Source: Catajapyx aquilonaris (lineage: Eukaryota). From it: a stretch of 61,924 bases of DNA. How positions within the stretch are numbered: the first letter of the stretch is position 1; each line of letters opens with the position of its first letter. Location: assembly GCA_000934665.2 (NCBI GenBank), contig KZ538109.1, forward strand, positions 62,001 to 123,924, in the 5' to 3' direction. Positions 31,707 through 60,368 of this stretch are shown here, piece after piece. Below the pieces are notes generated by a model. The model saw only the letters and a program-made list of their open reading frames with translations, was not told the origin of the DNA and did not search any database. Made by a program: the position numbers and the translations under genes.

Positions 31707-33264
31707 TTAAGGACGAAAAGTTTTTGTGAGGTACTCATGTCCTGCCACATCGGGGAGGGGAAGGGTTGGAGTAATTTTATTTGCAACTTTCGTTATACGA
31801 TCCCCCAAATTCTTCTTAAATCCGTACCCAATGAGATCGAAAAGTTCTTGTGAACTGTTATTTATAAATGCTTCGGCTGCTTCTCCTGAAAATTAAAAAC
31901 GCAATATTGATGTTGTGCAACCAACAAACCATCAAACCGTACAAGAAATTTAACAAAAACTTACTGAGGATTGCGTTGTCTTTGTATAGGTTGTTCAAGC
32001 GAATGACTATGTCGCTCGTAACTACGTCCTTCACCAGTCCTTCTAGTTTTATATGGGAATTATCATCAGTCAAGCCGAACTTGCACTGTCCTTTGGCATT
32101 AACTTTTTCTGAAACATTACATGATTGTTAGTACATTAAATTAAACACACGTTACATTGGAGTCAAGTTTCACTTCCTTACAAAAGCACTTTATGTTACG
32201 ACTCGGTGTAAAATGAGGTAATTAATAGGTTTACCTTCTCGCATTAAAACCCCTTGGTGCCAATAACCTATACAAGGTTGTCTGCGAGTCAAGGATGGCC
32301 GATACCCGTCCTAACAACAGGTTACCCCCAAGAGATTTCCTCTTGGTTACGCAAAGTAACATGCACTTGTTCAGACAGCCCATAAAATATAGTCTACAGT
32401 ATACCTGCCCTGGATATAGCAGAAACATGTATGTTGCAAAAAAAACTGCATCATACACAGGAAACCTTTTTTTGGCCGGAAAATTGATAGGAGGTTGTCA
32501 ACAACAAAAATTATTTTTTCCAGCCAAATCTTTCCTTGCCCAATTAATAATATAATTACTTACTCAATCTGGCCCACATGGTTCCTTCCCCTTGGAGCGA
32601 TATGAGAGAGATTCTGGCATCAATCTTGTACTTGGCCTTCATATACAGTTCTGGGAAAAATAACTCCCAGGGAGCTATCCCATTGTCGTAGTCCAATGTC
32701 AGCTTGCGGAGCTCCATATCTTCGAAGCCTCTTATCACAATGTCCCACATGGCCATGTTTATGTAGCTGTTCTCGTTTTGGTAGTCACTTACGGTCACAT
32801 TATCTAGATCCACCTCTGTCATTGGTGGAAGACCGAATTCTGGCAATCCTGAAAAGAAAAGTCACAAAGTGTACAACAAAATACAATTTGTAAAATTTAC
32901 ACTCCTATAGCCATTTAAAATTCGCTTTTTAAAGAGCGAATAGTGGCATAACAAAAGTTAATTTACCAGTTACAAAGTCGGATCTCATCTCATTCACCAG
33001 CTTGATTAAACATGGCTCCAACTTGTCTCGACTCACATCCATACACCGACTGACTACATCATCTGAAAATATTTATGGTTATGGTTATGGTTATGGATAT
33101 TACCACCACAAAAAGCATAAACAGATCATAATATCTCCCCTCTTGGGGACTTGGACAGAATCTTGAGTATAATGTGTTATGATGACCATCTACTGACCTT
33201 TTGGTATGACTGCTGCGAATACTGCGGACACGCTGAGGACCAGAAGACACAGTTGCTGCTTCAT
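31707..33264 (-). CDS. Takeout/JHBP family protein 1
   Basis: Five exons: signal peptide MKQQLCLLVLSVSAVFA, C-x10-C (CMDVSRDKLEPC), GLPEFGLPPM, YKIDARISLISLQGEG, RLNNLYKDNAIL. TATAAA at 33306-33301. Confidence 0.88.
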
Positions 33265-37026: not shown

Positions 37027-38021
37027 GTTGTGAACGAGTGGAATCACATGGGCTCACTGTGTTTTGTGTCCTTTTATACCCTATCTTCAAGGTGACAGTG
37101 TTGTCTTACTGTAGCGAATTTACGTAATGAATTTAGTTATTAAGGATCATACCAGCTTTTTGTTGTCAGTGCAATTGACGTCTGATACTTTCCCTGAACA
37201 TGACATTCCTTGATTATGTTCAAGTCAAGGACTACCGGTAGCATTTACTGTAATATCGACTGACGTAACAGTTATGACGATACAGCTTAATGCGGAACTA
37301 AAATATTTTACTAACTCTTTCGAAAATAATTGTGCGAGCTACTAGTGTGCTATCAGACTGTGACATAAACTTATGTCACAGCAGTTCAATGTATCTCATA
37401 CAGGCTAGGCCTGCTGCAATTTAGCACCCTAAAATGACAACAATTATTTATAAGATCAGAATTTAGGAAATTCAATAATAGTTTGTAACTTTGTAGTAGG
37501 CATATATTATGCAATTTCGTTTACTTTTCGCAATACTTCCAATTCAATGCTCATTAGTTATTTAGCTACACGAACACATTTTCAGGTGATAATATATTCA
37601 GTGCCCCATGGCAATTTTTATAGCCGATGACTAAAATGTAAACTAGCCTTTCTTTTTTTCCACAAAAACGAAGGCCTTCCACAAAACCGCGCGTGTCAAA
37701 AAATGTACACTTGATTTTTAACGTGATAATGAACAGGGATCAGTATCTACAAGACGTCATCAGTAACCCTGCTTGCGTTAACATCATTTTGTTTCCAGAC
37801 TTCAATTTCAAGGTCTGCTACTGGTTTTTCTCCTTGACAAAATAAATTTTAATGTGAGAACCTGTCGAGTTCACACATGTCCGGAATGTTACAGTAAAGG
37901 TATAGTACACGTAACAAAATCTCCCAGAACATTCCTGACTCATGCAATGCAATATTAAAAAGAACTGTGTCCTTCATCTAAAGAGAACGTCTGGGGAGTA
38001 ATTGCTGGACTGACGTAAGTG

Positions 38022-38058
<37 letters not shown>

Positions 38059-38267
38059 TCCCTAAGGTCGGTTAAACCAAAGAACGATGTGACGTCACCT
38101 CCCCTAGTCTCTTTCCTCCAATCATATCCTCGAATGGCTCCGCAAGAGTGCGCATGCTCAGAAAACACGGTTTGTGTGACGTCAGCTTGTTCTTTGTCTT
38201 AAATGACTACATTTTACTTCTACAGGCAAGAAATTAAACCACTGCGCAATATGGATTCCTTTTTTTA

Positions 38268-39863
38268 TTAATGCAAGAGTGGAATGGGAAGAAAATGGTC
38301 AATCTCGGGACAGTCATACGTAACGGCCCAATGGCACGTCTGTTTTGTCTTCATGTCGATCGACCCTATGGTCAAGTATATGCAGTAAGGTTGTATCTTC
38401 TTCCACATATCCTGAAGGAATCCCTTAGACACATTCTCCATCAGGGCACCTTTGAAGCTCGCAAACACCAGGTCGTTTCCGAAGTAGTTAAACATCACTG
38501 TTACGATATCTGGAGTCAGACTATTGCTAATGAAGTCGAATCCAAGCATTCGTGGCATGGGGTTGACTTCCAGGAGATTGTGCACCGTCTCGTTGCTCAA
38601 GGTATCTTGCCAGATTTCCAGGATCTTCATATCGCTGCACTTGGACGTGAGGAACATGAGGTGATCCCAGTTTAAATTGCTCCAAGAGTCATAAATAAAT
38701 AGCTTCTGCAGCGTTGTGAAGGGCTGAGTCATATCATCATTGTTGATTGGGTATACGCCACATTGATACAAGTACAATTCTTGAAGTTGTGGGCAGATAA
38801 TTTGGAGTTGCTGGAAGTCGACATGATCACACTTGTACAGCTTGAGTTCAGTCAGATTGGACATCGAGAGATCCTTGACAGCCTTCAGGGTAGGTGAGAG
38901 TTTGAGGACACGTGACAAGGAGAGACCTATCAGTCGAGAGTACACTATCCTGTTCACAACCATCATGTGCTCTGGGTTGCAGTCCGTCAGATGCAATATC
39001 TTCATCTCTCCAAACCTGTTGAGCGGAGTCAGATCCTTGCAGTGGCCGAATATCCCAAATTCCAGCTTGGGAAAATGTCGTACCAGACACGTCAACAGGG
39101 TGCTTCCCTCGATGGCTCCACCTCCCGTCACATTGTTACAATCGCAGATTTTCAGTTGCTTAAGTGATGGGTAGGATTTGCGTAACGATCGTAGGAGAGA
39201 ACGAATCAAATACTTTTGGATGAGCAGGACCTCCAGATGTGGTACGGAGTCCAGGATGTACTTGACGTCGTCCACTCTTCCTCCGCAGTACTCGACATAC
39301 ACTCTCTTCAGATTGCGACATTTGGCTAGAGTCACCTTCTGGTTCCTGGACAACCCCCATTTCATACACAGCTCCTGAAGATCCGGACAATACTTGACCA
39401 GTTTGTTGAACAAGCCTACTTCATCCGTCACCACACTGGCCAACCGAAGAGACTTGAGCTTCCGGAGTCGAGGAAGATTCCTGGCTACCAGAATTGCGAT
39501 TGTTGGGTTGGGCTTGGAGGAATCTGACCAAGCCATCCAGAGGTGGGTCAGGTTCTTCAGTCTGTTAAGGTTTTCCAACAGACTGATCTCTTCTCCTACG
39601 GTGGCCACTGCAATGCGGGTACACCATCGGCAAACTGAGTCTCTTATGTTGACATCTTTGAAGTGCGTGACATGAGCGGACATGAAGAGGATTCCGGCCA
39701 TGTACTCATTAGCCAAGGTGACAGGGATCATATTGGACATATCCTGGATCTCTTTGGAATGTCCATTGGGATGCATTTTGCAGAAATTCAGGATCATTTT
39801 TCCTGTGTAAGTGAGGCATAATTCTTCCAATGGTGCGGGCGGCACCTTTATGCTTAAAGGCAT
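38268..39863 (-). CDS. Intronless leucine-rich-repeat protein with BC-box-like N-terminus (putative cullin-RING substrate receptor)
   Basis: 531-aa single-exon ORF from ATG 39863. Repeated LxxLxL units (LKNLTHLWM, LRKLKSLRL, CPDLQELCM, CRNLKRVYV, CPQLQELYL) of the FBXL/AMN1 type. N-terminal PPAPLEELC. Confidence 0.8.
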   Translation of the reverse strand: MPLSIKVPPAPLEELCLTYTGKMILNFCKMHPNGHSKEIQDMSNMIPVTLANEYMAGILFMSAHVTHFKDVNIRDSVCRWCTRIAVATVGEEISLLENLNRLKNLTHLWMAWSDSSKPNPTIAILVARNLPRLRKLKSLRLASVVTDEVGLFNKLVKYCPDLQELCMKWGLSRNQKVTLAKCRNLKRVYVEYCGGRVDDVKYILDSVPHLEVLLIQKYLIRSLLRSLRKSYPSLKQLKICDCNNVTGGGAIEGSTLLTCLVRHFPKLEFGIFGHCKDLTPLNRFGEMKILHLTDCNPEHMMVVNRIVYSRLIGLSLSRVLKLSPTLKAVKDLSMSNLTELKLYKCDHVDFQQLQIICPQLQELYLYQCGVYPINNDDMTQPFTTLQKLFIYDSWSNLNWDHLMFLTSKCSDMKILEIWQDTLSNETVHNLLEVNPMPRMLGFDFISNSLTPDIVTVMFNYFGNDLVFASFKGALMENVSKGFLQDMWKKIQPYCIYLTIGSIDMKTKQTCHWAVTYDCPEIDHFLPIPLLH

Positions 39864-40577
39864 AGCGATCAGTAAAAACAGTGACAACAATAGAAAGTAC
39901 TTGACTGGTAGCTTCGTGCCACTGATGTAAAATAAAGTACTTAAAAGTAACTTGCCTTATTTCTGGCCTTAATTACTTCTAGCTGGACAAAAAAAATTCG
40001 TCTTCTAGAACCTAGTGGTAAGTCTGAAGAATGAAATACAACAGTAGTGTGCTATTTCTTGGCAACAACAAAATTAGAAACTATCAATGCGAAATGTGAT
40101 TCGATCCTACTATAACGACTTATGTCACCTCTACTACAAGTATACTCTTTGAAGTTGTGGCAGAAGTAACAAGCAATCGCGAAGGTGAAGGAGGTTGCAA
40201 CTTGCGGAGAGAAACAAAAATAAAATCTTAGCACAACAATATTTATTAACGTTATTAATTATTGATTGCGATATTAATTGTTGACAACAATGAATAATGA
40301 ACTTTTCGTATCTGACATGATGGGAATAGATGGAATATGTCTGTTATGCTAAAGGTGAAATCCAAGTGGATTGTTCTATATCCTGTTTCCCACCAGAAAA
40401 ACGTAGACCAACAACATAAACACAACCAGTATTATTGAGCCTGGGGTGATTTCGTAATAGGAATGTTTTTATACAAAAATACGATACTATACAGTATAGT
40501 AGCCATGAATTTGTAATTATAGTGTCACATCGCTACCCACTGTTAAAACAATACATAAAGCATTTATTACAAGCGAA

Positions 40578-41827
40578 TTACATGTTAAGTGTTTTGTTAA
40601 TAAATTCGTTTCCTGCAATATCTGAAAGAGGTAGAGTTAGTAGCATCCGGTCGATACCTTCCTTCATTATTTGATTCAATTTTGTTTGAAATTTAGGTTT
40701 CATATAATGGAAGATTTCTTGGCCATTTTCGTTCAAAAATGCCTCTGCTGCTTCTTCTGCAAAAAATATTAAGTAACATTATTAACATTGTATCCTTTTG
40801 TCATACTACCAAGGATTGAAGGCAGCACGATTACCTATAAGTTATATCCTTTGAAACAAATTACAACATCAGAAGCTTCATAATTTTTTTACTTACTCAG
40901 TATGGGACTATCATTATAAATATTGTTGAGACGAACAGCCACATGCTCCGGTGTAATATCTATCATATTACTCTCGATAATCAAGCGATTTTGTTCATCA
41001 GCGGATTTGAATGCGTGTTCTCCTGAAATATTCACATTCTCTGGAAAATAAAGAAGACATAATGTACTGTACAACCCTGCATGTATATGTAATACTGCAC
41101 ACATGCACACTATAGTTTCACAAAATCTGTGAGTAGGCAAAAATGCAAAGGAAATGATTAGACTATACTTACTCAGTTTCGACCACATAGTGCCTTGTCC
41201 TTGTAGTCTTATTAGCGAACCATAAGAATCAATTTCATACTTGGCTTGTACAAAGATCTCAGGAATAGTCACCTCCCAATGGGAAATTAGTTTTTCGTAG
41301 TCCACCTGTAGCTTGGTCAGTTCCATCTCTTCCAAGCCTTTGATGATCGTGTCATACATGTATAAATGTAGGTAATTATTGTCGTCTTGATAATCAGTCA
41401 CGTTGAGACCACCAAACTCGAGCTCATTTAATGTCGGAAGATTGAACTCAGGCATGCCTGTAAAAGCAACGAATTTAAAAAAGAACCATGCAAAATATTA
41501 TTGATATACGGTACACAACAAAATGTGCAGCACAAATATTGTCTTGACATGTGTCTTACCATTTGCAAAGTTAGGTTTCATGTCGTTGATTAATTGTATG
41601 ATGCATGGCTCCAAATCCTGCCTGCTCACTCCCTTACAACGAGCTATGATTTCATCTGCAAAGGAACACATTGAAACTCACCATCGTAACTATACTTATT
41701 AGATTCACACATCCGATGATTCTACAATAAATTTAAAATCATTTAAGGACTTACCTCTCCTTAGCTGTGCCTCAGCAAGAAATGCTGCAGCAAAGAGAAG
41801 CAGAAAACTGCTCCAGTGAAAAGCCAT
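40578..41827 (-). CDS. Takeout/JHBP family protein 3
   Basis: Five exons: MAFHWSSFLLLFAAAFLAEA, CKGVSRQDLEPC, GMPEFNLPTL, YEIDSYGSLIRLQGQG, RLNNIYNDSPIL. Confidence 0.88.
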
Positions 41828-42120
41828 GATTCAACTGGTTCCAAAGGTACCGTATCCTAAGTTATTATATGGCTGTAATTAATATTACATTACGTAATTC
41901 TTACGTACATGTTATGAACGACGTATAACGGCATGATTGACGTACAGTACACATTTACGATGGTTATGACGGACAATTCACTGTTCCATCAACAAAATGT
42001 GTTATGCAAAAACGTGCCTGAGGCCATTGAGGCCTGGAAGATGCAGGTCTCCCAGGGCCATATGATTGTGTAAGAATAGGCCTAATTGAAGTTTCCACGT
42101 GTCATATTAACTGTAGGAGG

Positions 42121-42474
42121 GGGAGGTGTGGTGGTCGAGATGGTAACGTTTCGGCTTGCTGAGTGAAAGGCCCCAGGTTCGATCCCCGCCTGGGGAACTT
42201 TCCTTTCACCAGCGTCAGGACCGGGTCTCTGACCTGCACCAAGGAGGTGTCTGGCAACCTAACCTCCTGGGGAACAGCACATGACGCATTAGCTACGACA
42301 TTGCACCTTGTACCCATGTTCCCTCCCCAAAAATCCCTATCCTTTCCCATTGTCCCTGTTTCCTTGCACAGGAGAATGAAGTGAAAATAAATACAGAAAA
42401 CTGATGGTGGTATGCCACCCCCTATAGCTCCCGTAAGGGACATCACGGGGTAAAATGAAATAAAACATAAATAA
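42121..42474 (+). mobile_element. tRNA-derived SINE
   Basis: A box TGGTCGAGATGG, B box GGTTCGATCCC, A-rich tail. 17-bp TSD with one mismatch: ATATTAACTGTAGGAGG at 42104-42120, ATATTACCTGTAGGAGG at 42475-42491. Confidence 0.85.
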
Positions 42475-43511
42475 ATATTACCTGTAGGAGGACGGAGAAT
42501 ATTCACCCATACGGTATGTTCTCGCTATCAATGCACTACTTTTAAAATAGAAGTTTATGTCTTGGTTCGCAATTTTTCAAACAAGCAGTTACTTTGAAAC
42601 AGTTACTTTATTAGCTGATAGTATTATAGGCCGAAGGTGCATCTAATGAAACTCTTATCTACAAAAGACAAGTTCAATATTATTATTACTGTATTGACCT
42701 TGTATCAAAGGGTGATTCAAGATGCATTAACTTCGGAAATTCTTAACAGTTTAGATAATAAGGCTACCATTGATAAACGCTACAAGGAACTGTAGATAAG
42801 TTAATGCTAACTAATATTAAAGCAGCTCAGAGAGAGAGAGAGAAAAAAAAGCCAACCACTATGGAGAGTTTAGTTGGAGCAGTATTCTTGTAACCAATTT
42901 TTTAATCAAATTGCCTGGGTTAGTTTGATGAAATAGTTAATAACGTCTCGATGTTCATGGCTAGAATTTTTATGGGTAGTAACTAATATGCTATCCATAC
43001 CTTTTATTACAAAGGCTCTATGCATAACCAACTGCATATAAATTTCATTATCAAATTTTAAATCAAATTATATTTTTGATGGAATGGATGGTGTGGCATC
43101 ATCCCCATAGATTTACCAGCAAGACGTCAACATTGATCTTTGATAACATACTGACAACATCATAATATGGTAATTATTATATCCGGTCTATTATTTCAAG
43201 GTCCTCTGTGGTAGTTTTTTTTTTGAAATAATGATGTGCGATTCTGCAAGATATATTGCACAAGAATAACACTTTTATAGTTTTATATCTTGAGGATCTC
43301 TATAGAGATGTGAATCGTACTCTCCCGGAATTGTACTTTATATGAGTGATGCACTGGTGATGCATGATAGAGAATCCATATAGCCCATACTGTATAGGCC
43401 TATATTAACTCAAGCACATTCAGCTGAATTTTTTTGATTGATAGACGCTTGGATATAGATGCTTATAGTACGAGAGTTTAATGGACTGAACACATAATAC
43501 AGGGGAATATA

Positions 43512-44783
43512 TTACACGCTGATAAATTCTTTTCCTGCAACATCTGCCAGAGGTATAGTAGTTACAGTCCGGTCGCCATAATCATTCAGTACTTGATTCA
43601 ATTTCGACATTATTTTAGGTTTCATATATTGGAAAATATGCTGGCCGTTTCGGTTCAGATATGCCTCTGCTTCTTCCTCTGCAAAATAACATTACGTACA
43701 ATTATTTACGAACTAGTGTACAGTTCAGTATTATAATAATTTTTCTACAAATTTCCCCCACAACATTCCCACACCTACATTTGCCTTCAAAGGTTGTCAA
43801 AAAATTACTTACTCAGGATGGGATTGTTTTCGTAAATATTATTGAGGCGCAATGCCACAGTCTCCGGTTTAACGTCCTTCAGAGTACCCTTGATGATCAA
43901 ATGAGTTTTGTCGTCAGACGGTTTAAATGTGTGTACTCCTCCAACATTCACATTATCTGAAAAAGGCATAAAACATTAAATTCAATTATTTTTGGGGAAA
44001 CAGAGGTATTTCCTTTCCAAAAATATTGTCTCCAATATTTGATTATACTCACTCAGTTTGACCCACATAGTTCCTTTTCCTTGGAGTCTTACCAGCGTCA
44101 TGTGAGCGTCAATTTCATATCTGGCTTGTACATATAACTCAGGAATTGTCACCTCCCAATGGGCATCTTGCTTTTCGTAGTCCACCTTCAGCTTGGTCAG
44201 TTCCGTGTCTTCAAAGCCTTTGATTTTCATATCAGACACGGATAAATACAAGTGATTGTTGTCATCCTGATTCTCTGTCACGTTGAAACCACCAAATTCC
44301 AGATCTTTCACAGTCGGAAGACTAAACTCAGGCATACCTACAAAAATAATGTGTTGAAAATACTGTACAATCAGCATAACACTACTTCCTAGTTCCTATA
44401 CAAATGTCTGCCAGCTCTGCTAGCGTAACGTGCAATAGAGAAAGTTGAACAAAAATGATGAAATTTTGTCTCACCATTTTCAAAGTTAGGTCTCATGTCG
44501 TTGATTAATTTGATGAGACATGGTTCCAGATCCTCCCTGCTCACTCCCTTACAACGTGCTATGACCTCATCTGCAAAAAAAATGTTTTAAAAATAATGTG
44601 GTGTATATGTTATAAGTACACAAACTGTTATTTTTTCGACGTCACGTTTCAAAGACGGGAAAAGTACTGGTCCCGCCTCCAATTCGGCACAACCCTGCTG
44701 ATGTATAACTGACCTCTTTGAAGTAGGGCCCCAGCAAATGCAGGAGCAAAGAGAAGCAAGAATCTGCACCACTGAAAAGCCAT
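43512..44783 (-). CDS. Takeout/JHBP family protein 4 (close paralog of 3)
   Basis: Five exons: MAFQWCRFLLLFAPAFAGA, CKGVSREDLEPC, GMPEFSLPTV, YEIDAHMTLVRLQGKG, RLNNIYENNPIL. Confidence 0.88.
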
Positions 44784-45543
44784 GATAAAACTTGAAGTGA
44801 AATGGTACATGTCTCCATTTATATTGCCTTTCCTTATTCTTTCAAGGTGAACAATTTGTTACGTTACCCTCATTGACATTCTATGTGGAGTTAGACCCTG
44901 ATAAATTATCTTGTCCATTATGCAATAGGCTCTAGTCTTGTTTTAAAAGCAGGATGTCAGAGTTGAGAGAGGCACCTTTCTAATGAAAATTGTCAAGTGA
45001 TTTTACAACAAATTTGTAGTGTGACAAGTACTTAAGCAATACATTCACACGAGGATGTTAGGAACGAATAATTTTATTTTACCTAAATTCTCACAATCAA
45101 TTATTCAGCATTATTATCAGAAGTGGGTGAATAATGCAATAGTTTAATAGCCACTTATTGTGTCAAACACTGATGAAAATGGCCTTTGACATCGTCCCAA
45201 ATTCGACTGGGATATCGACTTTTTATGCATATTTCGTCGACATCACCATGACATGGTGTGAAGTACTAACCCAGTAAAAATGAGCAAAAAAAAACACGAT
45301 CCTGGATGAAACTAGTTTACCCCGTAATGCAACTATGACACACCTGAGGGAAATGAAAGTCACCTCATTGACCACTACCTACATGATTTGGGGATACAGA
45401 TGGGGGTACTTCTTGAACATTATAAAATAATAACGTAATTATAAGTATTTTCTTCTATTTTATTTCCCTGCCGCCTTTTACAGAAATTCATTGAGCATTT
45501 TAAATGCATATACAGTACAAGTGCATGAACTGCATAATTATAA

Positions 45544-48003
45544 TTAGTTAGAAGTAGTTTTAATATTGGCTACAACTTGGTTTCCAATATCAGTAATAAC
45601 TCGGCTTAGGTTGCGCTTCAAGGCGGGCTTCACATATCGGAAAAGAGTTTGACCACTGGCATCCATAGTTAACTGCATTAGTGATTCTGAAAAAATTTAA
45701 ACAAATGAATATTGAGTACAAATTGAAAATTTAAGAATTAATTTAATTAAGTTTTAAAGTACTGTAACTGACATGAATTTAAATTAGCGAAAATATATCA
45801 TTTTGTGTATAAGTACAGAAAAAGCATAAGCTTAATTTATTTCTTAATTATCAATCAAACAACTAGTCCTGCAACTTACGTAAAACCAGATTATCTTCGT
45901 AGAACTTGCTAACAGGAATCTCCACATCTTCGGCGTCGATTCTGGTTACTTTGGCTTTAATTTTTAAATTCTCCTGTCCCTGCTTCGCGTCCAACCAACC
46001 CTCTCCTTTCATCACCACACGCTCTGAAATTAAGCAAATCAATTTTTATTGATACAAATAGGATGTAAATGGTGGATAATGTCTGAAATAATTGCACTGA
46101 TTATTTTAAACAAGATTGGAAAATCACGTAAGCGTGATTAGAGTAGACATTTTCATGTTTACTGATATTTTCCCCAACGTCCGTATCGTTCAGATTGAAA
46201 AAGTGCATACTCAAACTGGCCAGCATGTCTCCGTGTCCCTTGATTGGAACGTAAACCTTTCCATCTACAGCATAGCTTAATTCTACGTCAAGCTGTGGAA
46301 CGAATATCTTCCAAGTGGCAACTTTGGACTGGTCGTCCACATTCAGGTAGGTCAAGTCTGCCTTTTCGAATCCTCTGGCTGTGATATCCATATTTGCAGA
46401 AAGTTCCATGTTCTTCGGCGGTCTATATTTATCTTCATAGTTATTCACACTAAAGCCGGTTACAGATATTTCCTTCAGCGATGGCAAGCCCAGGTCAGGC
46501 AATCCTGAAAAAGTAAGGGTTCATAGTAAAATTTTTAAAAAATATAAGGAATCCAATTAGGTTCACTCAAATGGTCCAGTTACAGCTGACTTTATAATTA
46601 TGACACTTTATTATGATTATAAGTCTTACCATGTTCAAAGCTTGGCTTCAAATCCTTGATTAATTCAATAATGCATGGCTCCAAATCTGGTCTCGCCACA
46701 TCCAAGCAACGATTAATTGCAGCATCTGTAATAATACACACCATCATCACAATCATTTGGTACAGTATATTTCCGCAATAAAGTCTATAATTAAGCACAA
46801 TTTTCTTGCAATCTATTTGCGACAACTGAGAAGAAAAACACTGCAGCGGAAATTTCGAAATTTTCTCTTCGCTCTAATGGGCAATAAATACCCTGATTGC
46901 CTACAGTAAGAAAAAATTATTTTTATTCTTGCTCTTGGCAGTACTTGAGAAGGGGAAAAAAATTTAAGGACTTCACCTTTCCAGCACGAATTTATACAGG
47001 ATGACTCTAAAGTCAGGTTACATAGGTAAATGTATTGTATGATTGGTTTCCAGTTGTGCTAACTAGCAGATTGTTGTCATTGGTACGGTTGGCACAACTG
47101 AAAGCCAACCGGCAATACAATCTAATTACCTTATCGTGACTTTAGAGTCACTCTGTATAACTGAGACACCAAAATAATTGGAAAACCCCCACTCCCTTTT
47201 GCATAACCTGCCAGGGCCTGCTGTCGTCTCCAGAATGTCCCAAAACCATCAATACCAACAGATGGAAACAATTTATGACCAGATTTGAAGAGTTCGGGTG
47301 CAAAACAGCCTAAGTCCATTTTCGTGAAAGGACACGGCACAAAAAGTATGGGCCGATGGCCTTCCGCTCTATATTTGCCTGAAAATGGGATATGTTGTCC
47401 CATATCCCATTTTCAGGCAAATATAGAACGGAAGGCCACTGGTCCATACTTTTTGTGCCATGTCCTTTGAGATAGCAACACCATGTAGTCAATGAGGAGG
47501 CCCTTTACAAGTTGGTGTAAAAGTAATAAACAAAATCGCATAAGTCTCGTATAGGTATTCACCTTGGAAAAAATTCGATTAGTGAAAAAAGCCCCTATAA
47601 AGCTCCTATAGGGAGCTTGGGGTGTACGGTACTCTATACACAGTATGTCACAGCATTATACTCTTTGTACCATTTTATAGTAAAGCTTGTCAAATGCTAC
47701 CTCGGTCCTAAATTGGTATAATAGTTAGGCCCAGAGTTTTTGTCGCAGATAGTGAGCCAAAAAAAAACTTTTATGCAGTGTAGTTTTCCGTGTTATGAGA
47801 CTTGCACGCTACTTTCACATAATCATGAAGTAAATCCAATGTGACTAGAATTTTAAAAAGCCCCTGCTGGTGTTATGTACTACATCAAATGAGACCCTGT
47901 AGTAAGAGCCTAAACTATCAGAAATTTTTGTTTCATTACCTTTCTGCAGACTCCCTGCCAATGTAGAGCACACGAGCCCAAGGAAGACCAGGCAAATATC
48001 CAT
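45544..48003 (-). CDS. Takeout/JHBP family protein 5 (divergent)
   Basis: Five exons: MDICLVFLGLVCSTLA, CLDVARPDLEPC, GLPDLGLPSL, YAVDGKVYVPIKGHG. Shorter last exon. Confidence 0.82.
46997..47155. mobile_element. Tc1/mariner-type MITE
   Basis: TA flanks; TIRs CAGGATGACTCTAAAGTCA and TGACTTTAGAGTCACTCTG. Confidence 0.75.
47326..47468. repeat. Near-perfect palindrome (MITE-like) in takeout-5 intron 1
   Basis: About 68-bp arms AAAGGACA.GGCACAAAAAGTATGG...TATATTTGCCTGAAAATGGGATATG with a very short loop. Confidence 0.85.
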
Positions 48004-49867
48004 GTTGATCTGACACGAAATGCGAAATGTGTTCATACCTGTATGCTGCTTATACTCCGGCTCACTCTCAAGGTGACCAGTTTCCCATCCTTGAACACCA
48101 AGTTAGTAAAATATACTCTACGGATATTTTTAATTAGTTGCATAATATGCGCCATCAGTTTTGCACGAGTGAAAACTTTTTGTCACTTGTGTGCTGAGAC
48201 TAATCATTGCAACAGCGTCCTTAAAGAGCTGTTTTTGGCATTGTTATTGGTCACATGATATGGAAGAGGAAGCTGAAGAAACCTTCATTGAATTAATTGG
48301 ATTTGTTTGTCGCAGTGAGCTAGAGTGTTTCCTGCCATCTTAGTTATGAAGGAAATGTGTACAGTACTGTAATTTTTTTTATTGCCACGTTTCCCATGCC
48401 ATCAAGCAACGAGGTACTCAGGAGACTCTGCCATCTATGGGCGATATTGAAACATATAAATTTCTCACACTCAGCATGACTCGACTGACTTGGTGAAGGT
48501 CGTTGAGGCGAATGGTCAGTCATCTTGGTCATGTTTACGTCGGTCTCTCAACTGTGTAGCTTCATTAACAAAGTAATCTACATTCAGATTTACAGCACGA
48601 TTCAATTATATTAACTGTAAAAATTTGAAACTTACAGTACAAGTAATAAAATTTACAATTTGACATTGGTATAGGTCACTCTAAATTACGTAAACACTTC
48701 TGTACTTTTTGCATTTCATTTGCAGCTATAGGCGAGAACTCCCTGCAGCGAAGATGAAATGATTCGCACTAGAAATATTTTGCCAAGGTTAGAGTATCCA
48801 ATCATGAGTTTCATCCTTAGTGAACGCAAGCACAGTTAAATATTGCACTAAATGATTACATAAGCACAAATCATTACCGGTAACTTAATTTAGCAAAATA
48901 TGTCATCAGAGACACAAACGAAATAGTGCGTGCAATCTTTTTACACCTTGACAATGTTTGAAGCAACAGGTTTGCACTACAGTTGATGAGAATACATTAT
49001 GTTGTATTATACAACAAATAATTCAACTGCGTGCTTAGTACATGTTTGCTAAAGCATGTAGTTTGGATGATGTTATGAATTACCAGTACAGCATTTATTT
49101 ATACAATAATTAGTGTACAATAATTTTACACTTAGGTCAAGCACTTTGTATGACAAATTGTTCTTGTGAAATCTACATTCAGGTAAAAAAAAAGAAGTTT
49201 TTTTATAGAGTCTTCTGAGTCGAGTTGCGGAAACAAAGGAGAATATCGGTTAATTTCAAGGTTACTCATTTGCTCACCTGAATGATGAACATTTGACGAT
49301 TTGCAGACATAACAATAACCTTGAAATTAGCCTGCTGCGCCATAAAGTAATACCTTGATATCCTTCAATAAATGTTACACCCATCGCCTCAAAAGGCGAT
49401 AGCAAAAAAGTGATCACTATTCGACGTTTGGTTTATTCATAAATAAAAAATAATTATACATCAAACATGCTGGGAAATTGCTGCATAAATGAAGTAATTA
49501 CAGCTTTCACAGTTGATTAGCAGTTTACAAAAGCTCTGGGTAATTCTTTCATCCGAAAGATGCACATATTTTGTCTTTATTTATGAAACAGTACTTGCTA
49601 CCATGCACCGAAAAATTGCTGTTTCATGCTTTAAGTTAAGAAATAAATAGCACAAAAACAGGGCTTGAAGTAGCCAACGTAAGTGTAAATGTAATAACCC
49701 ATGTTGTGAAACTGCAGCCATATAGGGAGAGCTACACGTCGATAACCCACAAGCTTTTTTCTTAGGTGTGATTACACAGAACAACCTTGAGCTCAGCTTG
49801 TAATGTGCATCTGTACTTTATTATTGATATTAAGGAGGTTGGCCCAGCATTGCCTTTCAACCTCCAA

Positions 49868-50021
49868 GGATAGGGAAGGAAGGAAGCGGCTGTGGCCTAT
49901 TATATGGAAACAACCCCGGAATTATCCTAGGAAGACCGTGGAAAACCACGTTCAGGGTTGCCGGCCCCGGGATTCGAACCCAGGACCTCCCGATTAGCAG
50001 GCGGACGCCCTATCCACTATG
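49868..50021 (-). mobile_element. Partial SINE of the same family as 6066-6365
   Basis: Reverse complement CATAGTGGATAGGGCG..CTGCTAATCGGGAGGTCCTGGGTTCGAATCCCGGGGC matches the 6066 copy. Confidence 0.85.
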
Positions 50022-50268
50022 TATTTAGGGAAGTGCACTTTGACATACGTTGTATTGCCCTAACATACTGTTGTAAATGCAGTAACGACCTTACAGTACG
50101 CTAGTACTTCGTGTTGCACGCACATGTAGGAGAAAATATCAGTCGAAAGCCAATATTATAATCACTGCTTATTAGGCTTAATTATATAATCATCAATTTT
50201 TCATCATATCACCTTGAAAAGGGGAATAAAAGCCGACATTTCATACACCCTTCCTGATCAGAATCATC

Positions 50269-51479
50269 ATGAAGGTCCAAGTGTGCTTACTGGTGGCTCT
50301 CATGCCAGTCATCTTCGCAGGGGTCATCCCAGAAAGTTGGTATTTTTAAACGCTCGGTAGTTCTGATTAGACTCTGAATTTATTTATTTTCCTGCACGAT
50401 ATACTTTAATGAATATTTCATATCCATTTCAAAATCACTTGCAGCCAAAAATGATCGTGTTAAGTGATTTTTTGATATGCGCTGAATATTGCCATGTTGC
50501 TTCAGTGTATTTTTCCAACTATTGCAAAAACATTTGTCATTTTCTCTCTGCATATTTCCAGATGACGTACTTTCTCGCTGCAAGGATAAAAGCCCAGAAG
50601 CTATGGGACCATTCCTTGTCAAGCTTATCAACGAGATGAGCGAGGACTTTACAGACGGTAAGACCTATTGTCACTTAACTTTTATACATTATTGTTTAAT
50701 GCCCATATGTGGAGCCTGTAGATGTGCTGTTTCAGGTTTACCCGAGTTTGGTTTGCCATCCATGACGGAGCTGGCAATCGAGAGTTTCTCCATGAAAGAA
50801 AGCTCAAACGATGATAGTTACTTCAACATAGATTTGTGGGACATTTACGCCAAGGGTCTGGAAGAGGCTAAAATGACCAATATCGAGGTCGATTACGACA
50901 ATAAAGTTGTTCATTGGGAAGCGACTGTTCCGGAGCTCTTCGTGCGAGGAAAATACAAGATTGACGCTAAGCTGTCCTTCATTCCCATCCAAGGTGATGG
51001 AACAATGTGGGGAAAGCTGGGTAAGTCTACAGTACATGGCAGGTCCATCTTGAGCATTGAGTAAAACCATTCAATATTATTTACACTGCAGGAACTAGTC
51101 ACGCCAGAGGATATGCCAAATTTGATCTCGTTGGTGAAGATAAGCACTTGAAGGTAGTGGTCAAAGTAGAGGACCTGGACGCCAACAAAGCCACAGTCCG
51201 ATTCAATAATCTCTTCCCAGGAAATGAAATCTTGAGTGAGTTTCTGCCTTCAAAGTGTCGCAATTTTTAATACTACGTGTAACGCTTTTTACTGTTGCAG
51301 AGGAAGCGGCAGAATCCTTCATTAACGACAATACATTAGAAATGTTCGATCTCATTGAACCTGAGCTGGTTAAGAAACTGAGCAAAGTCGCCACGGAACA
51401 TATGGACAACATCGGAAAGACTCTTCCTATTGAAAAGTTGGCAGGGGAACAACACCTTAGAAAAGCATTCAATGTCTGA
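50269..51479 (+). CDS. Takeout/JHBP family protein 6 (inverted orientation)
   Basis: Exons 50269-50335, 50562-50658, 50736-51021, 51092-51235, 51301-51479. Motifs CKDKSPEAMGPF, GLPEFGLPSM, RFNNLFPGNEIL. Confidence 0.9.
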
Positions 51480-52476
51480 TCATTGTGACCCATTGTGAAG
51501 TGAGAAGAAATTGAGTCGAAAACTGATGTCGTGAATTCTTTACGTTAATGACTGATGGATGTCAATAAAAACTATTGTGACGTAAACATTCAGCATAACT
51601 ATACCTGATTATTCTCCTTCATGTGCATTCCTCATATATAATAGTCACTAAAATGTCCAGGAAAATAATAAAACATACGGTACCGAAGAAAATATGTTAA
51701 TAACATTCCTCCTTTCATGAAGGAAGGTGTGGGTCTGGTTCCTTTGTAAATAGTTAATTTTATTGCTCCTTATTTTCGAATAATAATTTTTTGCATACCT
51801 TATTTGGATTCTGCGACACCATATTATTCAAAGCGGCTGATGTTTTCATTCGAAATCTTCCTAAATATATAGATGTAATTGTTAAAACAATTTCATACGA
51901 CAGCGAATTGGTGGTAGTCTTCTTTGCAAAAATATTCCTGAGCACACTGCGGCGTCATATCCACCACATGTCACTAGACTACAGCGCAAACTGCCACTTT
52001 CACTGAAGGGGAAAATTATTCCAAATGATTCGTGATGGTCCAGGAATGGAAGACAACCCAGGCAAACGAAGATGATATATTTCAGCAGGTTAAATCTTGA
52101 TGTGTGCATTTGAAGGGTATTAATATATTATTCACTCTGTATGTAGACTATGAGATGGTCATACTAGGGAATCCAACAAATTTAAATCAAATATGGCGCA
52201 CAAAATTCTGATTTTGATATTGATTATTTATTGATGATTGCAATGTATTTTGAGTGGCAATTAAAACAATATGGGCAATGTTTCATTTCCAATGACTCAT
52301 ATTATGTATTGCATTTAACACATGGAGTTTCAACGCACAGGATAATCAGGTTTTTAAAAGTATGTTTATATCGCATTTTTATTAACATTCACTAACTCTA
52401 AACATCAGTGTTATTAACTTGGAAATTCACGACATCAGTTATTTATTCAATTTTTTATCACTTTACAACGATCGCT

Positions 52477-54571
52477 CTAGATATTGAAAACTTTTCTAAG
52501 ATGTTTTTCTCCTGCCAACTTTTCAATAGGAAGAGTTTTTCCGATGTTGTTTGCATGTTTCGTGACGAGTATGCCCAGCTTCTTATTCAACTCAGGTTCG
52601 ATGAGACTCAGCACTTCCAAGGTATTTTGGTTAATGAAGGATTCGGCCGCTTCCTCTGCAATGATTTAACGCCATTTAACACCACGTAAAGCAACTAAGA
52701 AAAATGAGGACTATTTGAAGACAGAAACTCACTCAAGATTTCATTTCCTGGGAAGAGATTATTGAATCGGACTGTGGCAGTTTTGGCCTGCAGGTCATCC
52801 ACTGTGCACAACACTTCCAAGTGCTTATTGCCGCCAGCAAGATCAAATTTGGCAGTTCCATTGGCGACACCATTTGCTGCAGTGAATAGAAAAATATTGA
52901 ACATTTTTGCGAATGCTTTACATAGCGGGGTGATATAAGCTACAGACTTACTCAGCTTTCCCCACATGGTTCCATCACCTTGGATGGGAATGAAAGACAA
53001 CCTTGCGTCAATCTTGTATTTTCCTCGCACAAAGAGCTCCGGAACAGTCGCTTGCCAGTGAGCAATTTTGTTGTCGTAATCAACCTCAATCTTGGTCATT
53101 TTAGTCTCTTCCAAGCCCTTGATTATAATGTCCCACAAATCTATATTGAAGTAGCTATTATCGTTTGTGCTGTCTTTCATAGTGAAACTCTCGATCTCCA
53201 GCTCAGTCATGGGTGGCAAACCAAACTCAGGGATACCTGAAAATAGAATGGATTCAAACATTTCATTTTTGATCGGAACACACCGCAAACAATGTACAAT
53301 ATGTCTCAATAGGTCGTGGCCAATTTATCCTGGTCTTGAAGCAACCCTTCACACACACCTCCTCACCGTGGGGCCTGTGTGAAGGGTTGCTTCAAGATCA
53401 GGATAAATTGGCCACAACCTATTGAGACAGATTGTACAGGCTGCACATAATATGAAAATTAAACATAAATATATAAAAGTTAAGTGACAATAGGACTTAC
53501 CGTTTGCAAAGTCCTCGCTCATCTCGTTGATAAGCTTGACAAGGCAAGGTCCCATACCTTCTGGGCTCTCATCTTTGCAGGTAGAAATTACGTCAGCTGG
53601 AAATATGCAGGTTATAAATTATTCCCTATTAGCAGAGTTTGATATGAATTCATGGCACATCATCGCAAATCGAGTGGAATGTACTGAACACCATATAATT
53701 ATTTAAATCAATGTAGATCACAACCCTCTTTTCCTGGTCATTGCTGCTGGCCTCAAAATTAAGGAAAGATTGCTAGATTTATGGGGGAACTACTTCCTGT
53801 TTCCATGTAGACCAAGGCTACTTAAGGTTAGTGCCAGTATGTGGAAGAACCTTGAGAGGTGAGCAAGGCTGCAAGGACTTTGCCTCACGCGAAAGGCTGA
53901 TGGGGTGTCAGGCTGGAGTCAGTGGCTTGCAAATACATGCGCAAGTCATAAAAAGAAAATAATTCATAGAGACTACTTATTGCACACATATTCATATTTA
54001 AAAGAGGGTAAAATCAATTAATATTGCATATATTAAGTAATATAGCGCATATGGCGTACAACAATGCATAATGTTTTTTTAAACTATCAGTTTTAAAAAA
54101 TACAGCAAGGCAAAAAATTGAAATCAAATGTAACCTTTGACAAAATAGTTGAAAATATTTGTACCTATCAGGAAACTCCTGATCTACTGTAGGTACCTTA
54201 CATGGCGAATAATGATATCATATTTTAAAAATTCATACGTGAAATTGACAGCAATTTAGAGGCATGTTAGTCAGCATCTAATAAAGACAGATTGTGTCGA
54301 GTTTTCTACAATGCTGAAGCAATAAGGTAAGTTAATTAATTAGTTCACTAATACTCGAACGTAATAATTCTAATGCCAGCAAGAGTTATTGGAATGCATA
54401 TGAAATGTTTATGAAAGTATATCCGGAGGAAAATAAATATAACCAGTCAAAGCACTGAAGCTGTGACAAAATGACCAAGAAATTCATTCTTAAACATTAC
54501 GAACCTTCTGGGATGACCCCTGCGAAGATGACCGGCACGAGAGCCACTAGTATGCACACCTGGACCTTCAT
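52477..54571 (-). CDS. Takeout/JHBP family protein 7
   Basis: Five exons: MKVQVCILVALVPVIFAG, CKDESPEGMGPC, GIPEFGLPPM, RFNNLFPGNEIL. Confidence 0.9.
53292..53438. repeat. Palindromic MITE-like insertion in takeout-7 intron 2
   Basis: About 62-bp arms TGTACAAT.TGTCTCAATAGGT.GTGGCCAATTTATCCTG.TCTTGAAGCAACCCTTCACAC. Absent from the matching introns of copies 6 and 8. Confidence 0.85.
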
Positions 54572-57500
54572 GATGATTCTGCGAGAGAAGGGTATCTGCA
54601 ATGTCGGCTTTTATTCTCCTTTTCAAGGTGATAAGGTTCTTGTTCTACTTTAATTTCTTTACGTAACATTGTGCATGATACATACCGGAACTTGTAAAAA
54701 AAAATACATGCAAGTCACTAAAAGGAGGCTGCTAAATGCTAACCACGGACTATATGTGGTGATCGGATAAACATTTGCTTCCTTGATAGCTGTCCTTTTA
54801 GAAAATACTAAACCATGTACTGCACGTATGGGTTTATGGATTTCAAACTATTATAATAATTGAAAGCTGCACTAGTGTGACCTTCATGTTCGATTGAAAA
54901 AGTCACCTACGAATTGTTATATAAGTGTGAGTGTAGAAATATAATATAACCTAACTGGCATATAGTTACGAATAGCATTGTGTGATCATGTGTACAGTAC
55001 AGCACGTAACAGAGTTCAAGGCTATTCATGAAGAATGATTAATATCAGTTGAGCAACCGAATGACCAGGTTAAGGTCAATTGAGGTGGTCAGCAGATATG
55101 TGGACGTAAATACAAATCAATCCATCAGGATGCTCAAATTTTCAAAGAGTCATATCGACGCTTAGTTAAAACAGATGATTAAAGATTTAATAATCGCGTT
55201 TTCAAATAATTTATTTAAAGGTTTCGTAAGGTAAATCCGGGGATGGCTGATCATATTGTTATTTTTATGGTATGAATGAAAAGACATTTTAGACAATTTG
55301 TTGTTTGCATTTACAATCCCTCACGCGGCCCAGATTTAAAAGTTGTTAGCAGTCACCTGACTATAGAGTGTGCACAAGGAACAAGATAAGGTTGATAGTG
55401 GAAAGGAGTGAAGTAGATCTTAATCACCATAATGTGATGTGGGGATATGGGAGAGAGAATTCTGAAGGAAAAAATACGCGAAAAATCCCCCATGTGCCAT
55501 AAAACCAGATCACACCCACGATTGTACTTCTAAAAAATATTGTACCAACTTCTATTCAAAGACGAATTTCCTGCAATGCCAACCAAACCTGTCGATATTT
55601 TTCCCGTGCGACATTGTATTAATACGGTACATGAAATATCAAGACTAATTTTCCTGTTCACCGTAATACAGTATAGGTCTATATTTTATCACGTGCTATA
55701 GGCCTATAGGATTTTACTGATTCACTTCTTTTACTTAACCTTGCACTTGAAGGTCAGACATGCAAGAAGTGACACCTTGAATTTTACATTAAAGGCACCC
55801 ATTCTGAGTACTACTACTGTATATTATTACCATTCAATTTTACAGAACAAAAAGCAGTAGAAACTGCGCTGCAACTCATGGCCTCCATATAGTGTCAGTA
55901 GGTCTATATTGACATTTCAAAATATACTATAAACGAAGGGCAGTACACTCTAGAACTGGTACTATATATGACAATATATTGTAGAATAAAATAATGAAAC
56001 AGTGGGTAAGTCTTAGAAGAACTATGGATTCGTACGATTGTTTTGCGTGTTAGTGACCAAAAAATGTCATCTTGACAATAATTTTCAAATCTACGAAAGT
56101 GTCAATGCTGTCAATGTGGAAAATTTCAGGGTTTTTGATGAAGCGAGTAAAAGAAAACATTTTTAAAATGATCAATAATTATTTGAACTTTATGACGAGA
56201 TAAAATAAGCGCAGTTGAGCAATCACGCGGTTAAATACTGTAGTTGGCCTTATAGTTTGATACCCATGCAAAATTTTATTCTACACTATATTGCCATAAT
56301 AACATTTTGTGCAGCGGAATATTCCTCGTTCATATTATCCTTTTCCAACATTCAAATCTATTGTGTCAATCACTTGACATAAAGTAGAGATACATTAACT
56401 CAGTCTCTCTATACAGTATACTCTACTGTATATCTATCGACAGAAATTAACATGGAAAATAATCTTCCTTTTATATGCAATTACATGGAACAACCTTGAG
56501 CTCAGCTCGTAATGTGCATCTGTACAACTGTAAAGCAATAATGGGCGAGTAAATGAGAATAATTGTCTGTCGTATTTAACAACTTAATAATGCAATATTT
56601 CAGTGCTAGAGAAACACCGACTGATATTAAGTGACATCAACTCCTATCGATAGTATAGTAGTTAGTCATGCTCCAAAACCATTTCTGGATCTAGGAAAAT
56701 CATCACGAATGGACCAGGAACTTTTAAACTCCAGACATTTGGCATATTACACGACTACTAAGACAGTTCATTACACTCATGGCGTGACTATCACCTGTAA
56801 TGAGTGTTACCATAGTATGAAATTATGCTACTTTGCGTAACATATTGCGTGCTTATGCATTACACTCAGGGCAGAACTTTTACCGCTATTTTTATTATTA
56901 TGACATATTGCCGTATATTGCTGCATTACTTAAAACCCTGTATCTTCGAAAATCACATAAATTGAGATAATTGAACTGCTCTTTGGAAGCCACACCTGTT
57001 GGTACAAATCCCGTAGGAGAAACCCTTCAATCTATTGAAATGCATATTGCTTGCTTAAGGTGATATTTTATAGAAATAAATGTTGGTTGAACAATTTGGA
57101 AATACCTTACATATAGGGTATTTAATGCCTTTTTAATAGATTATTATGAAAATTATTGTTCGTTAGCAATGTGCGACTCAAAAAATTGGCCATCACATGC
57201 AATATTGTTGTAAATACAGGTATTAAAGATAAAATTCCGCCTCATTTCTAGCAATTTCTATAATGTTAAAATTCATTCACTTATGTCGCGTCTCCAAGTA
57301 TGACAAGAAATTACCACACTGTTCAAATATAAGAAACAATAAAATAAATTATTTTAAAACGTACCAGGACCACACCTTTATTGACAAGTGAAGTAATAAT
57401 AATAATATTGTTATTGTCATTTTCTTCAGCATATTTTATTCCTTTACTGCATATTTACCGTACATATTGCATTCTGATGCATTGGTGTTGTAACACATAG

Positions 57501-57636
57501 GATAATCTTTAGTAAGATGTTTACATGACATTTTTATTGATATTCACTACATCCATCATTGGAGTTATTAACGTGAAAATTCACCACAACCGTTGTCCAC
57601 TCAATTCACCATGGATTTTAATGATCGCTCTACACT

Positions 57637-59390
57637 CTACAGATTGAACGCTTTTTTAAGATGTTGTTCTCCTGCCAGCTTTTCAATAGGAAGAGTTTTT
57701 CCGATGTTATTTGCATGCTCTGTGGCAAGATGGCCTAGTCTCTTAACCAACTCAGGTTCCATGAGACCAATCACTTCCATGGTATTGTCGTTAAGGAAAG
57801 CTTCGGCCGCTTCCTCTGCAATGAATAAACATAAGCCGGCGTTACACGTAAATCAAAATTACGACTCTTTGAAGACAAAAACTCACTCAAGATTTCATTT
57901 CCTGGGAAGAGATTATTGAATCGGACTCTGGCTGTTTCGGCCTCCAGGTCCTCCACTTTGACCACTACATTCAAGTGCTTATCGTCACCAACAAGATCAA
58001 TCTTGGCATATCCTCTGGCGTGACTAGTTCCTGCAATGTAAATAAAAAAATATTGAATGGTTTGACTCAATGGTCAGGTTGGACCTGCCATGTACTGTAG
58101 ACTTACCCAGCTTTCCCCACATGGTTCCATCACCTTGGATGGGAATGAAGGACAGTTTGGCGTCAATCTTGTATTTTGATTGTACGAAGAGCTCCGGAAC
58201 AGTCGCCTCCCAGTGAACAACTTTGTTGTCATAATCGACCACAATTTTGGTCATTTTAGTTTCTTCCAAGCCCTTGACTATAATGTCCCACGAATCTATG
58301 TTGAAGTAACTATCATCGTTTGAGCTTTCCTTCATGGAGAAACTTTCGATTGCCATCTCCGTCATAGATGGCAATCCAAACTCAGGTATACCTGAAAAGT
58401 ATAGAGTTGATCCATTTGGTATTTTGATAGTTAAATGAGGTAAGCCTTATCTTATTTGGAGAATGAACAATGTATAAAAATATAAGTGACAATAGGTCTT
58501 ACCGTCTGCAAAGTCCTCGCTCATCTCGTTGATAAGCTTGACAAGACATGGTCCCATAGCTTCTGGGCTTTCATCCTTGCAGCGAGAAATGACTTCACCT
58601 GGAAATATGCAGAAGGGCAATGCGAAATGTTTTCGAAATATTTGTCACTCACTCTGGTGTAATATGTCAACATTAAGCTCGTGTAAACTAATAATAAGTT
58701 AATGAAGCACACACTTATTATTGAATTTTGGGAAAGGTCACACTTAAGATTTGATATATCCATGATACATAATGACGCATCTGCTTACATTATGCATGTG
58801 TGGAAAAACTTTCGGATAAGACCAAACATTGGGTCATAACACGATGGTCCGTGAGATCGTAAATGACTGTAGTTTTTAGGACATAATGAACAGCATATTT
58901 AAATTAATAAAGATCACAGCCCTTTATTTCAGATCATTTCTGCTGACCTCAAAAAGAAGGAAAAGTCACTAGTCCACGTAGAGATTGTAGACCAAGGCTA
59001 TTGCAGGTTAGTGACAGTATGTGATGCCTTGAGAGGTGTGCAAGGCTGCAAGGTCTTTGTCTCACGCAAAATAAAAGACTCATAGAGGTCAAACCGGAGT
59101 CCGTGTTATGCAAATACACTCGCAACATTTTGGAAGTCAGGCACAAAAGAGCATAATTCATATTTCACACTAATTCATAATTAAAATAGGGCAAAATTAA
59201 ATTGCAAGTGATATTGGAATGTGAATGAAATGCTCACCAAACTACCCATATATTACAGAAAAATAAATAAAATGTCTAAGCAAAATCACCAAGAGATATA
59301 TACTATTTAAAAAAAATACGAACCTTCTGGGATGACCCCTGCGAAGATGACTGTCACGAGAGCTACCAGTAAGTACACCTGGACATTCAT
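57637..59390 (-). CDS. Takeout/JHBP family protein 8
   Basis: Five exons: MNVQVYLLVALVTVIFAG, CKDESPEAMGPC, GIPEFGLPSM, RFNNLFPGNEIL. Confidence 0.9.
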
Positions 59391-60368
59391 GATGATTCTG
59401 AGAGAGAAGGGTGTCTGAAATGTCTTCTTTTATTTGTTTTTTCAAGGTGATAAAATTCTTGTTATACTTTAATTTCCCTACGTAAAACTGCATGATGGGA
59501 ACTTTTATAACAAGACTGACAAAATCACATGAGACTTTTTTCTGGAACGTCGTAAATATGGGAAATGAATGATAGATCGTCCGCATATATCCTGACAGAA
59601 TTGGAATAAAATGAGCGATTGACCGCATAACCGGAAATGTGCGGTCACCTACGGTTGCGGTTGACCATAAAACCTTACACTATTATGCACAGGTCATAAG
59701 ACAATTATTCATTTCAACATGAACAGAATATATTTAAAAATTGAGGTTTTGTGTCACTGTTTGCTAAAGGCTCACAGAGTCTATAGTAACGAAAGTTGTT
59801 ATTTTCCAACCATAATTTACATCCTGAATTTTCAGATTGCATGTAATAAAGCCAATAAAACACTATAATGTCATCACATTTTAGTAGATAATTTCCAAGA
59901 AAATATTTTCATATATTACCGTAACAACCAAATAAAACTTTTCCCCGCGCGTTAAACCACGACTTTTTCCTTATTTTAAAATGTTATAAGCACTCTCCTT
60001 TGTTTACGGGTCCCCATTGCTACCTATAGTACCTCTATATACGTACACGTGACAAAATAGTTGTAATCATCGGAGGTGCAAAACTTAGCAAAATGACATT
60101 TCTATGCATGTCACATTTTGAGAATAAAAAATTCATAGTGACTTATAAATCACTCCAGGTACTCATTCAGTATACTGTACTGGATAATCCACCCGATATA
60201 ATTAGGATTACGTATAGGGTATAACATTCGATATAGTGTACAGTATACATCACATAACAGGGTTCAAGGCTATATTCATGACGAAGAATAATTATTATCA
60301 GTTGAGCAACCGGATTACAAGGTTAAGTCAACTTAAGGTGGACAGTAGCGGAGGGCACGTGGACGTAA

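Follow-up and report, generated by a model that had tools for sequence, protein, structure and literature searches.

A nine-base element resembling FTZ-F1 sites is maintained beside the TATA box in one clade of takeout genes of Catajapyx aquilonaris

Proteins of the JHBP/takeout family bind hydrophobic ligands, and the regulation of Drosophila takeout by Pdp1-epsilon is said to have been described by Benito et al. in 2010. Control of this gene by the clock and by Pdp1-epsilon is stated in PMC5318429 and PMC6160090, and the first of these reports that RNA interference (RNAi) against Ftz-F1 reduces most takeout genes in the brown planthopper. The FTZ-F1 consensus is YCAAGGYCR, and the fly Ftz-f1 CUT&RUN motifs given in PMC7239656 all retain the C at position 8; for ERR the response element given in PMC10484738 is TCAAGGTCA, and PMC3062615 describes MBF1 as a bridge from FTZ-F1 and bZIP activators to TBP. 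FTZ-F1 and PDP1 are each genetically linked to takeout-family expression, and a cis-element for the FTZ-F1 link was not found in the papers that could be searched. Here we analyzed a stretch of 61,924 nucleotides (nt) from Catajapyx aquilonaris (contig KZ538109.1, positions 62,001 to 123,924; hereafter the window), which carries eight JHBP/takeout genes, G1 to G8, and in which an initial annotation had pointed to a shared nine-base sequence upstream of the TATA-like boxes. We report that this element is maintained by selection in one clade of takeout genes, beside the TATA box, and that to judge from its sequence it probably acts as a genuine regulatory switch, resembling an FTZ-F1 site without matching it. 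A prior description of this takeout element was not found in a literature search in which subscription journals were thinly covered.

The 9-mer TCAAGGTGA, which reads TCACCTTGA on the gene strand, lies at all six positions where the initial annotation had placed it, in six of the eight genes and 7-18 nt upstream of a TATA-like box on the gene strand. On the minus strand it precedes the box by 8 nt in G2 (element 37087..37095, TATAAAA 37072..37078), by 18 nt in G4 (44842..44850, TATAAAT 44817-44823), by 13 nt in G5 (48068..48076, TATAAGC 48048-48054) and by 7 nt in both G7 (54623..54631, box 54608-54615) and G8 (59442..59450, box 59427-59434); on the plus strand it stands 7 nt before the box of G6 (50209..50217, box 50225-50232). 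The TATA-like box of G6-G8 is AATAAAAG and not a canonical TATA. The exact 8-mer TCACCTTG has 13,137 copies in the 285.6 Mb genome and is thus expected in only ~0.13% of 58-nt single-strand windows, so that the placement of the element in the window exceeds chance. A seventh copy of the 9-mer (15926-34) falls within an apparent coding exon of an unrelated gene. The count of six out of eight genes was right, but G6-G8 arose by recent duplication (81-88% amino-acid identity) and the carriers consequently represent only four independent lineages; likewise the orientation is constant in all six, as had been stressed, but it is inherited and is not independent evidence. The array does hold eight genes, one of which, G1 (ATG 33264), falls outside the coordinates first given for it.

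The analysis was extended to the whole family. A one-exon genome search gave 107 matches, and searching ~490 kb around them with exon profiles led to 115 second exons, against 23 takeout/JHBP family members reported for Drosophila; the genome thus holds at least about 115 paralogues. First exons were located from signal-peptide and splice-donor scores only, a procedure that recovered 8/8 window starts and in which start codons were picked blind to the motif. Of these 115 genes, 92 with a confident first exon were kept and 23 were dropped because of a low score, a short upstream region or missing exons. A midpoint-rooted FastTree tree was built from the 17 genes whose third exon is unsplit, together with 25 representatives drawn from the other 75; in it the 17 genes form one clade (support 0.983), which falls into 11 lineages. 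T[ACT]ACCTTG is present at -110..-45 from the ATG in 15 of these 17 genes, including all nine that lie outside the window, and sits 60-88 nt before the ATG in the 15 carriers. At the same position it was found in 0/75 other paralogues and in 0/23 dropped gene models. Outside the window the exact 8-mer occurs in 5/9 clade genes, or 4/6 lineages (p ~5e-11). The battery of lipid-carrier genes proposed by the initial annotation therefore stands for one 17-gene clade, and a family-wide battery was rejected on the 75 split-exon paralogues. When the search was widened to -200..-45, T[ACT]ACCTTG appeared in 7/75 of these, including a gene of the sister group (C1728_34218) in which it lies 17 nt before a TTAAAAG box; because of such carriers the element may be older than the clade.

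Motif discovery with a resampled background gave ACCTTG as the top de novo 6-mer, shared by 10 of the 11 lineages, or by 9 if G3 substitutes for G4 as the single gene of its lineage. The best 6-mer in upstream control windows reached 4-5 lineages, and in 2000 resamples the highest value was 8, obtained once. ACCTTG is the most shared 6-mer although four-fold degenerate sites are only 44% identical between lineages (398/910; random 25%), which indicates that it has been kept by selection. Neutral inheritance or gene conversion would explain the motif merely by gene duplication, and the promoters of G6-G8 are indeed near copies of one another; 6/55 lineage promoter pairs still align at z >3 after masking of the element and TATA. 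The other 49/55 pairs do not align, however, flanking columns agree in 3-7/10 lineages as against 10/10 for ACCTTG, and most carriers are just 30-62% identical in protein. Neutral inheritance is thus largely refuted as an explanation of the sharing, and we consider it extremely unlikely.

We also asked whether the element is a general promoter feature. A TATA plus initiator (Inr) pattern gave 75 genome matches, of which 58 were fetched and reduced to 46 non-redundant sites. T[ACT]ACCTTG occurs in 0/46 of these unrelated sites and ACCTTG within 60 nt in 2/46; only some of these controls are true promoters, since the pattern is barely enriched (75 matches versus 66 for the reversed control) and 13/46 sites lead into a hydrophobic frame. 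Among cuticle genes the element was found in 0/7 candidate promoters, obtained from 30 of 66 cuticle-protein loci. Genome-wide, TCACCTTGA followed by TATAAA has 24 matches versus 46 for the reversed control, and TCACCTTGA followed by AATAAAAG has 11 versus 33. A general core-promoter element was rejected on these three results (24 vs 46, 11 vs 33 and 0/46). A narrower form of the idea would make the element a clade-specific helper of weak TATA boxes, read by the basal machinery or another factor and carrying no hormonal signal. Such a role fits the short gap of 7-8 nt to the box in four lineages, the weak AATAAAAG box being present in three of these, but the missing genome-wide pairing with TATA, the empty set of other TATA plus Inr sites and the variable spacing make it very unlikely. 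Out of 22 other genome matches to the 9-mer with TATAAA, one (L064, C4275:15783-15817, minus strand) enters a clear signal-peptide exon. This unrelated secreted-protein gene carries CAAGGTCACCTTGA before its TATA, in which a canonical CAAGGTCA forms an inverted repeat with the overlapping TCACCTTGA element; by eye the arrangement of the cysteines in its product is odorant-binding-protein-like, with Pfam matches in 0/3 exons.

The explanation that we favor, with a probability of about 0.55, is that the clade descends from an ancestral promoter in which a sub-optimal NR5A/ERR-type site, kept by selection beside TATA, and a bZIP site would together have provided hormone-linked co-activation. Read antisense, the 15 copies give Y (13/15), C, A, A, G, G, T, then G (11), A (3) or T (1), and A, with CAAGGT and the final A invariant in 15/15. 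The element matches YCAAGGYCR at 8/9 positions, including the 5' YCA extension and the AGG core, and an NR5A/ERR-type receptor is most likely its best-fit binder, with the site predicted to be sub-optimal. The FTZ-F1/HR39/ERR half-site assigned by the initial annotation is accordingly retained as a binder class, with the qualification that position 8 is mismatched in every copy. Two DNA-binding domains of the NR5A type, L144 (FTZ-F1) and L146 (HR39), are encoded in the genome, as well as, by our reading, receptors of the ERR (L158), HR4, HR38, HR3, E75, EcR and USP types. An altered receptor specificity was rejected, as the FTZ-F1-type domain looks ordinary. MBF1 was found in the genome as a weak match (E 0.004). 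Divergent nuclear receptors that carry a C[DN]SCK P-box region, and that we take to be HR96-like, have also expanded in tandem (L163-L169, on C214, C8228 and C23).

Together with the mixed quality of the TATA plus Inr controls, several observations weigh against this explanation. The consensus C at position 8 is found in 0/15 copies, so that the element is no strict NR5A site, although position 8 has seen only ~3 substitution events and the missing C is therefore weak evidence. The canonical sites TGACCTTG and CAAGGTCA each occur in 0/17 clade promoters within 400 nt, and a report of NR5A or ERR binding to CAAGGTGA was not found in the literature searched. G1 and G3 are without the element and yet appear to be intact genes. 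Outside the window the exact 9-mer is present in 3/9 genes, which belong to two lineages and whose promoters can still be aligned to that of G7, and the degenerate T[ACT] form was defined after the outside genes had been seen. Finally, one carrier (C2736_550) has the element and no TATA match, and the gaps between element and TATA in the clade vary from 7 to 19 nt. These gaps cluster at 7-8 and 17-19 nt; helical phasing was not counted, because gaps of 11-13 nt also occur and the lineages share ancestry.

The missing C at position 8 would be explained if the element were functional but its sense strand, CACCTTG, were the target of a Snail/ZEB-type zinc-finger repressor or other non-receptor factor sitting next to TATA. 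CACCTTG is compatible with a Snail consensus, and the choice between G and A after AGGT is reminiscent of the CAGGT(G/A) sequences preferred by ZEB/Snail-type fingers. The invariant flanking T (15/15) and the antisense pyrimidine at position 1 (13/15) are, on the other hand, predicted by the NR5A consensus and not by the Snail one, and a search for the Snail consensus string yielded no paper; we judge a reader of this kind to be quite unlikely.

The second component of the favored explanation, a bZIP site, is less firmly preserved. The TTACGTAA-type sites at 37120, 41890 and 54659 and the variants at 44858-67 and 59477-86 were all recovered, the one at 41890 belonging to G3, a gene without the 9-mer. 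With the consensus RTTAYGTAAY taken over from the initial annotation, and coordinates given without strand, the PAR-bZIP-like sites are ATTACGTAAA in G2 (37119..37128, one mismatch), the perfect ATTACGTAAT in G3 (41889..41898) and GTTACGTAAA in G7 (54658..54667). bZIP-like sequences are GTAACGTAAC in G4 (44858..44867), with a second one, ATTGCATAAT, at 44917-44926, ATTATGCAAC in G5 (48137..48146), which had not been listed before, and a decayed TTTACGTAGG in G8 (59477..59486) with more than one mismatch. In G6, ATTATATAAT (50181..50190) may be a CpG-decayed ATTACGTAAT. A site with at most one mismatch is present in 11/17 genes and 7/11 lineages versus 13/92 upstream background windows (p 2e-4), and in 4/25 representatives of the other paralogues (p 0.008 versus the clade). 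ATTATATAAT is the best match in 3/11 of these genes; it is AT-rich and may reflect chance or CpG decay, and p is 0.002 when its lineage is dropped. The consensus is perfect in just 2/17 genes, 6/17 have two to three mismatches, and the position shifts from -71 to -143. The bZIP neighbor is enriched near the element but is looser than had been proposed; such a PAR/C-EBP-type sequence does not by itself identify the bZIP that would read it. A three-part pattern gave seven genome matches, all in this clade, and five for the reversed control; since these promoters themselves served to define the pattern, the result means no more than that the exact composite is absent from all other genes.

In its full form the initial annotation had PDP1 and Vrille read the bZIP site as a daily clock input that is combined with the receptor site, so that the clade would cycle over 24 hours. 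The enrichment in 7/11 lineages, the confinement of the fitted composite to the clade and the clock and Pdp1-epsilon regulation of Drosophila takeout can be cited for it. Against it stand the rarely perfect and drifting site, and the fact that Giant, C/EBP and ATF4-type factors recognize RTTAYGTAAY-class sequences as well. Moreover the genes are a lineage-specific expansion and may not be orthologues of fly takeout, and PMC2542385 reports the expression of 16 JHBP genes in the epidermis of moulting silkworms. A circadian role is thus borrowed from Drosophila takeout and unsupported in our analysis, and we hold the clock model to be unlikely; moult or juvenile-hormone timing would fit the clade at least as well as a daily rhythm.

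Taken together, the promoter of the clade ancestor would have read, in order, a bZIP-like site, ~15-45 nt, YCAAGGTRA in antisense, 7-19 nt, TATA, a short leader and the ATG. Our comparisons indicate that selection has retained the middle element while its flanks diverged. The element would most likely be an extended half-site, slightly short of the optimum, to which a monomeric nuclear receptor of the FTZ-F1/HR39/ERR type binds; from its place beside TATA this receptor could help to load TBP, possibly through MBF1 as is known elsewhere. The looser site upstream may add a second input from a bZIP of the PAR/C-EBP class, and the whole clade would be activated at the receptor peak, which most plausibly falls at a time tied to moulting or juvenile hormone. 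A bolder version would make TCAAGGTGA no weak FTZ-F1 site at all but the preferred site of a distinct reader, either an NR5A/ERR receptor with specificity shifted in a TBP/MBF1 complex or an undescribed factor, and would join it to the bZIP site in a clade-private two-input cassette that merges hormonal with clock or nutrient timing for secreted carrier genes. The exact composite of such a cassette was found only in this clade; we nonetheless regard this version as quite improbable.

The eight takeout genes of the window span 31.7-59.4 kb; all but G6, which lies on the plus strand, are encoded on the minus strand. PF06585 (Pfam JHBP) matches 8/8 genes above its curated cut-off on exon 3 alone (39-71 bits vs 29.2), and all eight have a hydrophobic first exon by our own signal-peptide score, which is not a dedicated predictor. 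The closest relative of solved structure is a locust yellow protein, a weak match (E 0.005). G1 (31707..33264, minus) lacks the CAAGGT element and has a TATAAAT at 33300-33306 and a cyclic-AMP-response-element-like ATGACGTAGC at 33356-33365. It is followed by G2 (35402..37026, minus), G3 (40578..41827, minus), which has a TATA-like box at 41862-41869 and no element, its sister G4 (43512..44783, minus), which has the element, and G5 (45544..48003, minus), the most divergent with 30-39% identity to the others. Beyond these lie G6 (50269..51479, plus), inverted relative to the rest of the array, G7 (52477..54571, minus) and G8 (57637..59390, minus). Between G2 and G3 a 562-codon intronless open frame (38268-39956, minus) has weak leucine-rich-repeat matches below cut-off. 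Two facing copies of TCAAGGTTA form an inverted repeat at 49256-49324, between the divergent G5 and G6 promoters, and intron 2 of G7 contains a long inverted repeat (53273-53445), possibly a small foldback element. By open-frame reading only, the region 471-30270 holds three tandem sterol-desaturase-like genes, a RUN/FYVE gene, a soluble guanylyl cyclase and a trypsin-like protease.

Elsewhere in the genome the JHBP/takeout family is very largely expanded on contigs C67, C3108, C3619, C4009, C2142, C1160 and others, with many genes in tandem and several apparently broken. Two single-exon homologue searches gave no matches, and a search for the odorant-receptor family gave one weak match. One promoter (C360:80382, L035) has a second copy, CCACCTTGA, directly downstream of TATA. 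A split-exon subgroup (C3619:977, C4009:4025/9980/13164, C7414:4009, C7583:2481 and C8118:3326) shares an aligned G[TC][AG]ACCTTG 140-340 nt upstream, which is the canonical TGACCTTGG in one member and TAACCTTG in most; these promoters align overall, and the footprint is therefore weak. ETS-like CTTCCTG/CTTCCTT sequences are found in takeout promoters on C67, C3108, C1160 and C7197 (12/12 kept C67 genes and 7/9 on C3108), and the C3619/C4009 genes have recurring TTATGCAAC/TTACGTAAC pairs upstream. Each takeout subgroup seems to have a separate promoter signature.

Both the gene family and the type of regulatory element are known, and the takeout element is a variant of that type. The paralogue footprint across 10 lineages narrows the candidate target to exactly nine bases, and natural controls are at hand in G3, which lost the element that its sister G4 retains, and in the 75 other paralogues without it at that position. 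A further suggestion from the footprint is that genuine sites would escape consensus scans with YCAAGGYCR. The value of these results is limited by the fact that motif sharing is common among duplicated promoters and that the binder is inferred. With the Drosophila FTZ-F1 targets ftz, Edg84A and Adh, as presented in PMC7239656, the element has in common a nine-base CAAGG-core sequence in the proximal promoter, identical at 8/9 positions; there YCAAGGYCR lies within 500 bp of the start, whereas here the candidate element abuts TATA and has G, A or T instead of C at position 8. The ERR element TCAAGGTCA of PMC10484738 shares the 5' TCA extension and an AGGT-A half-site, from which the takeout element differs by one half-site substitution that is retained across 10 lineages. 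The Drosophila takeout/Pdp1-epsilon system is alike in that a PAR-bZIP may act on a takeout gene, while here the site is loosely kept and orthology and rhythmicity would have to be assumed. The planthopper work of PMC5318429 likewise ties FTZ-F1 to most takeout members; its evidence comes from RNAi, and the word 'promoter' is absent from its main text, whereas the Catajapyx genes offer, from their sequence alone, a candidate direct site.

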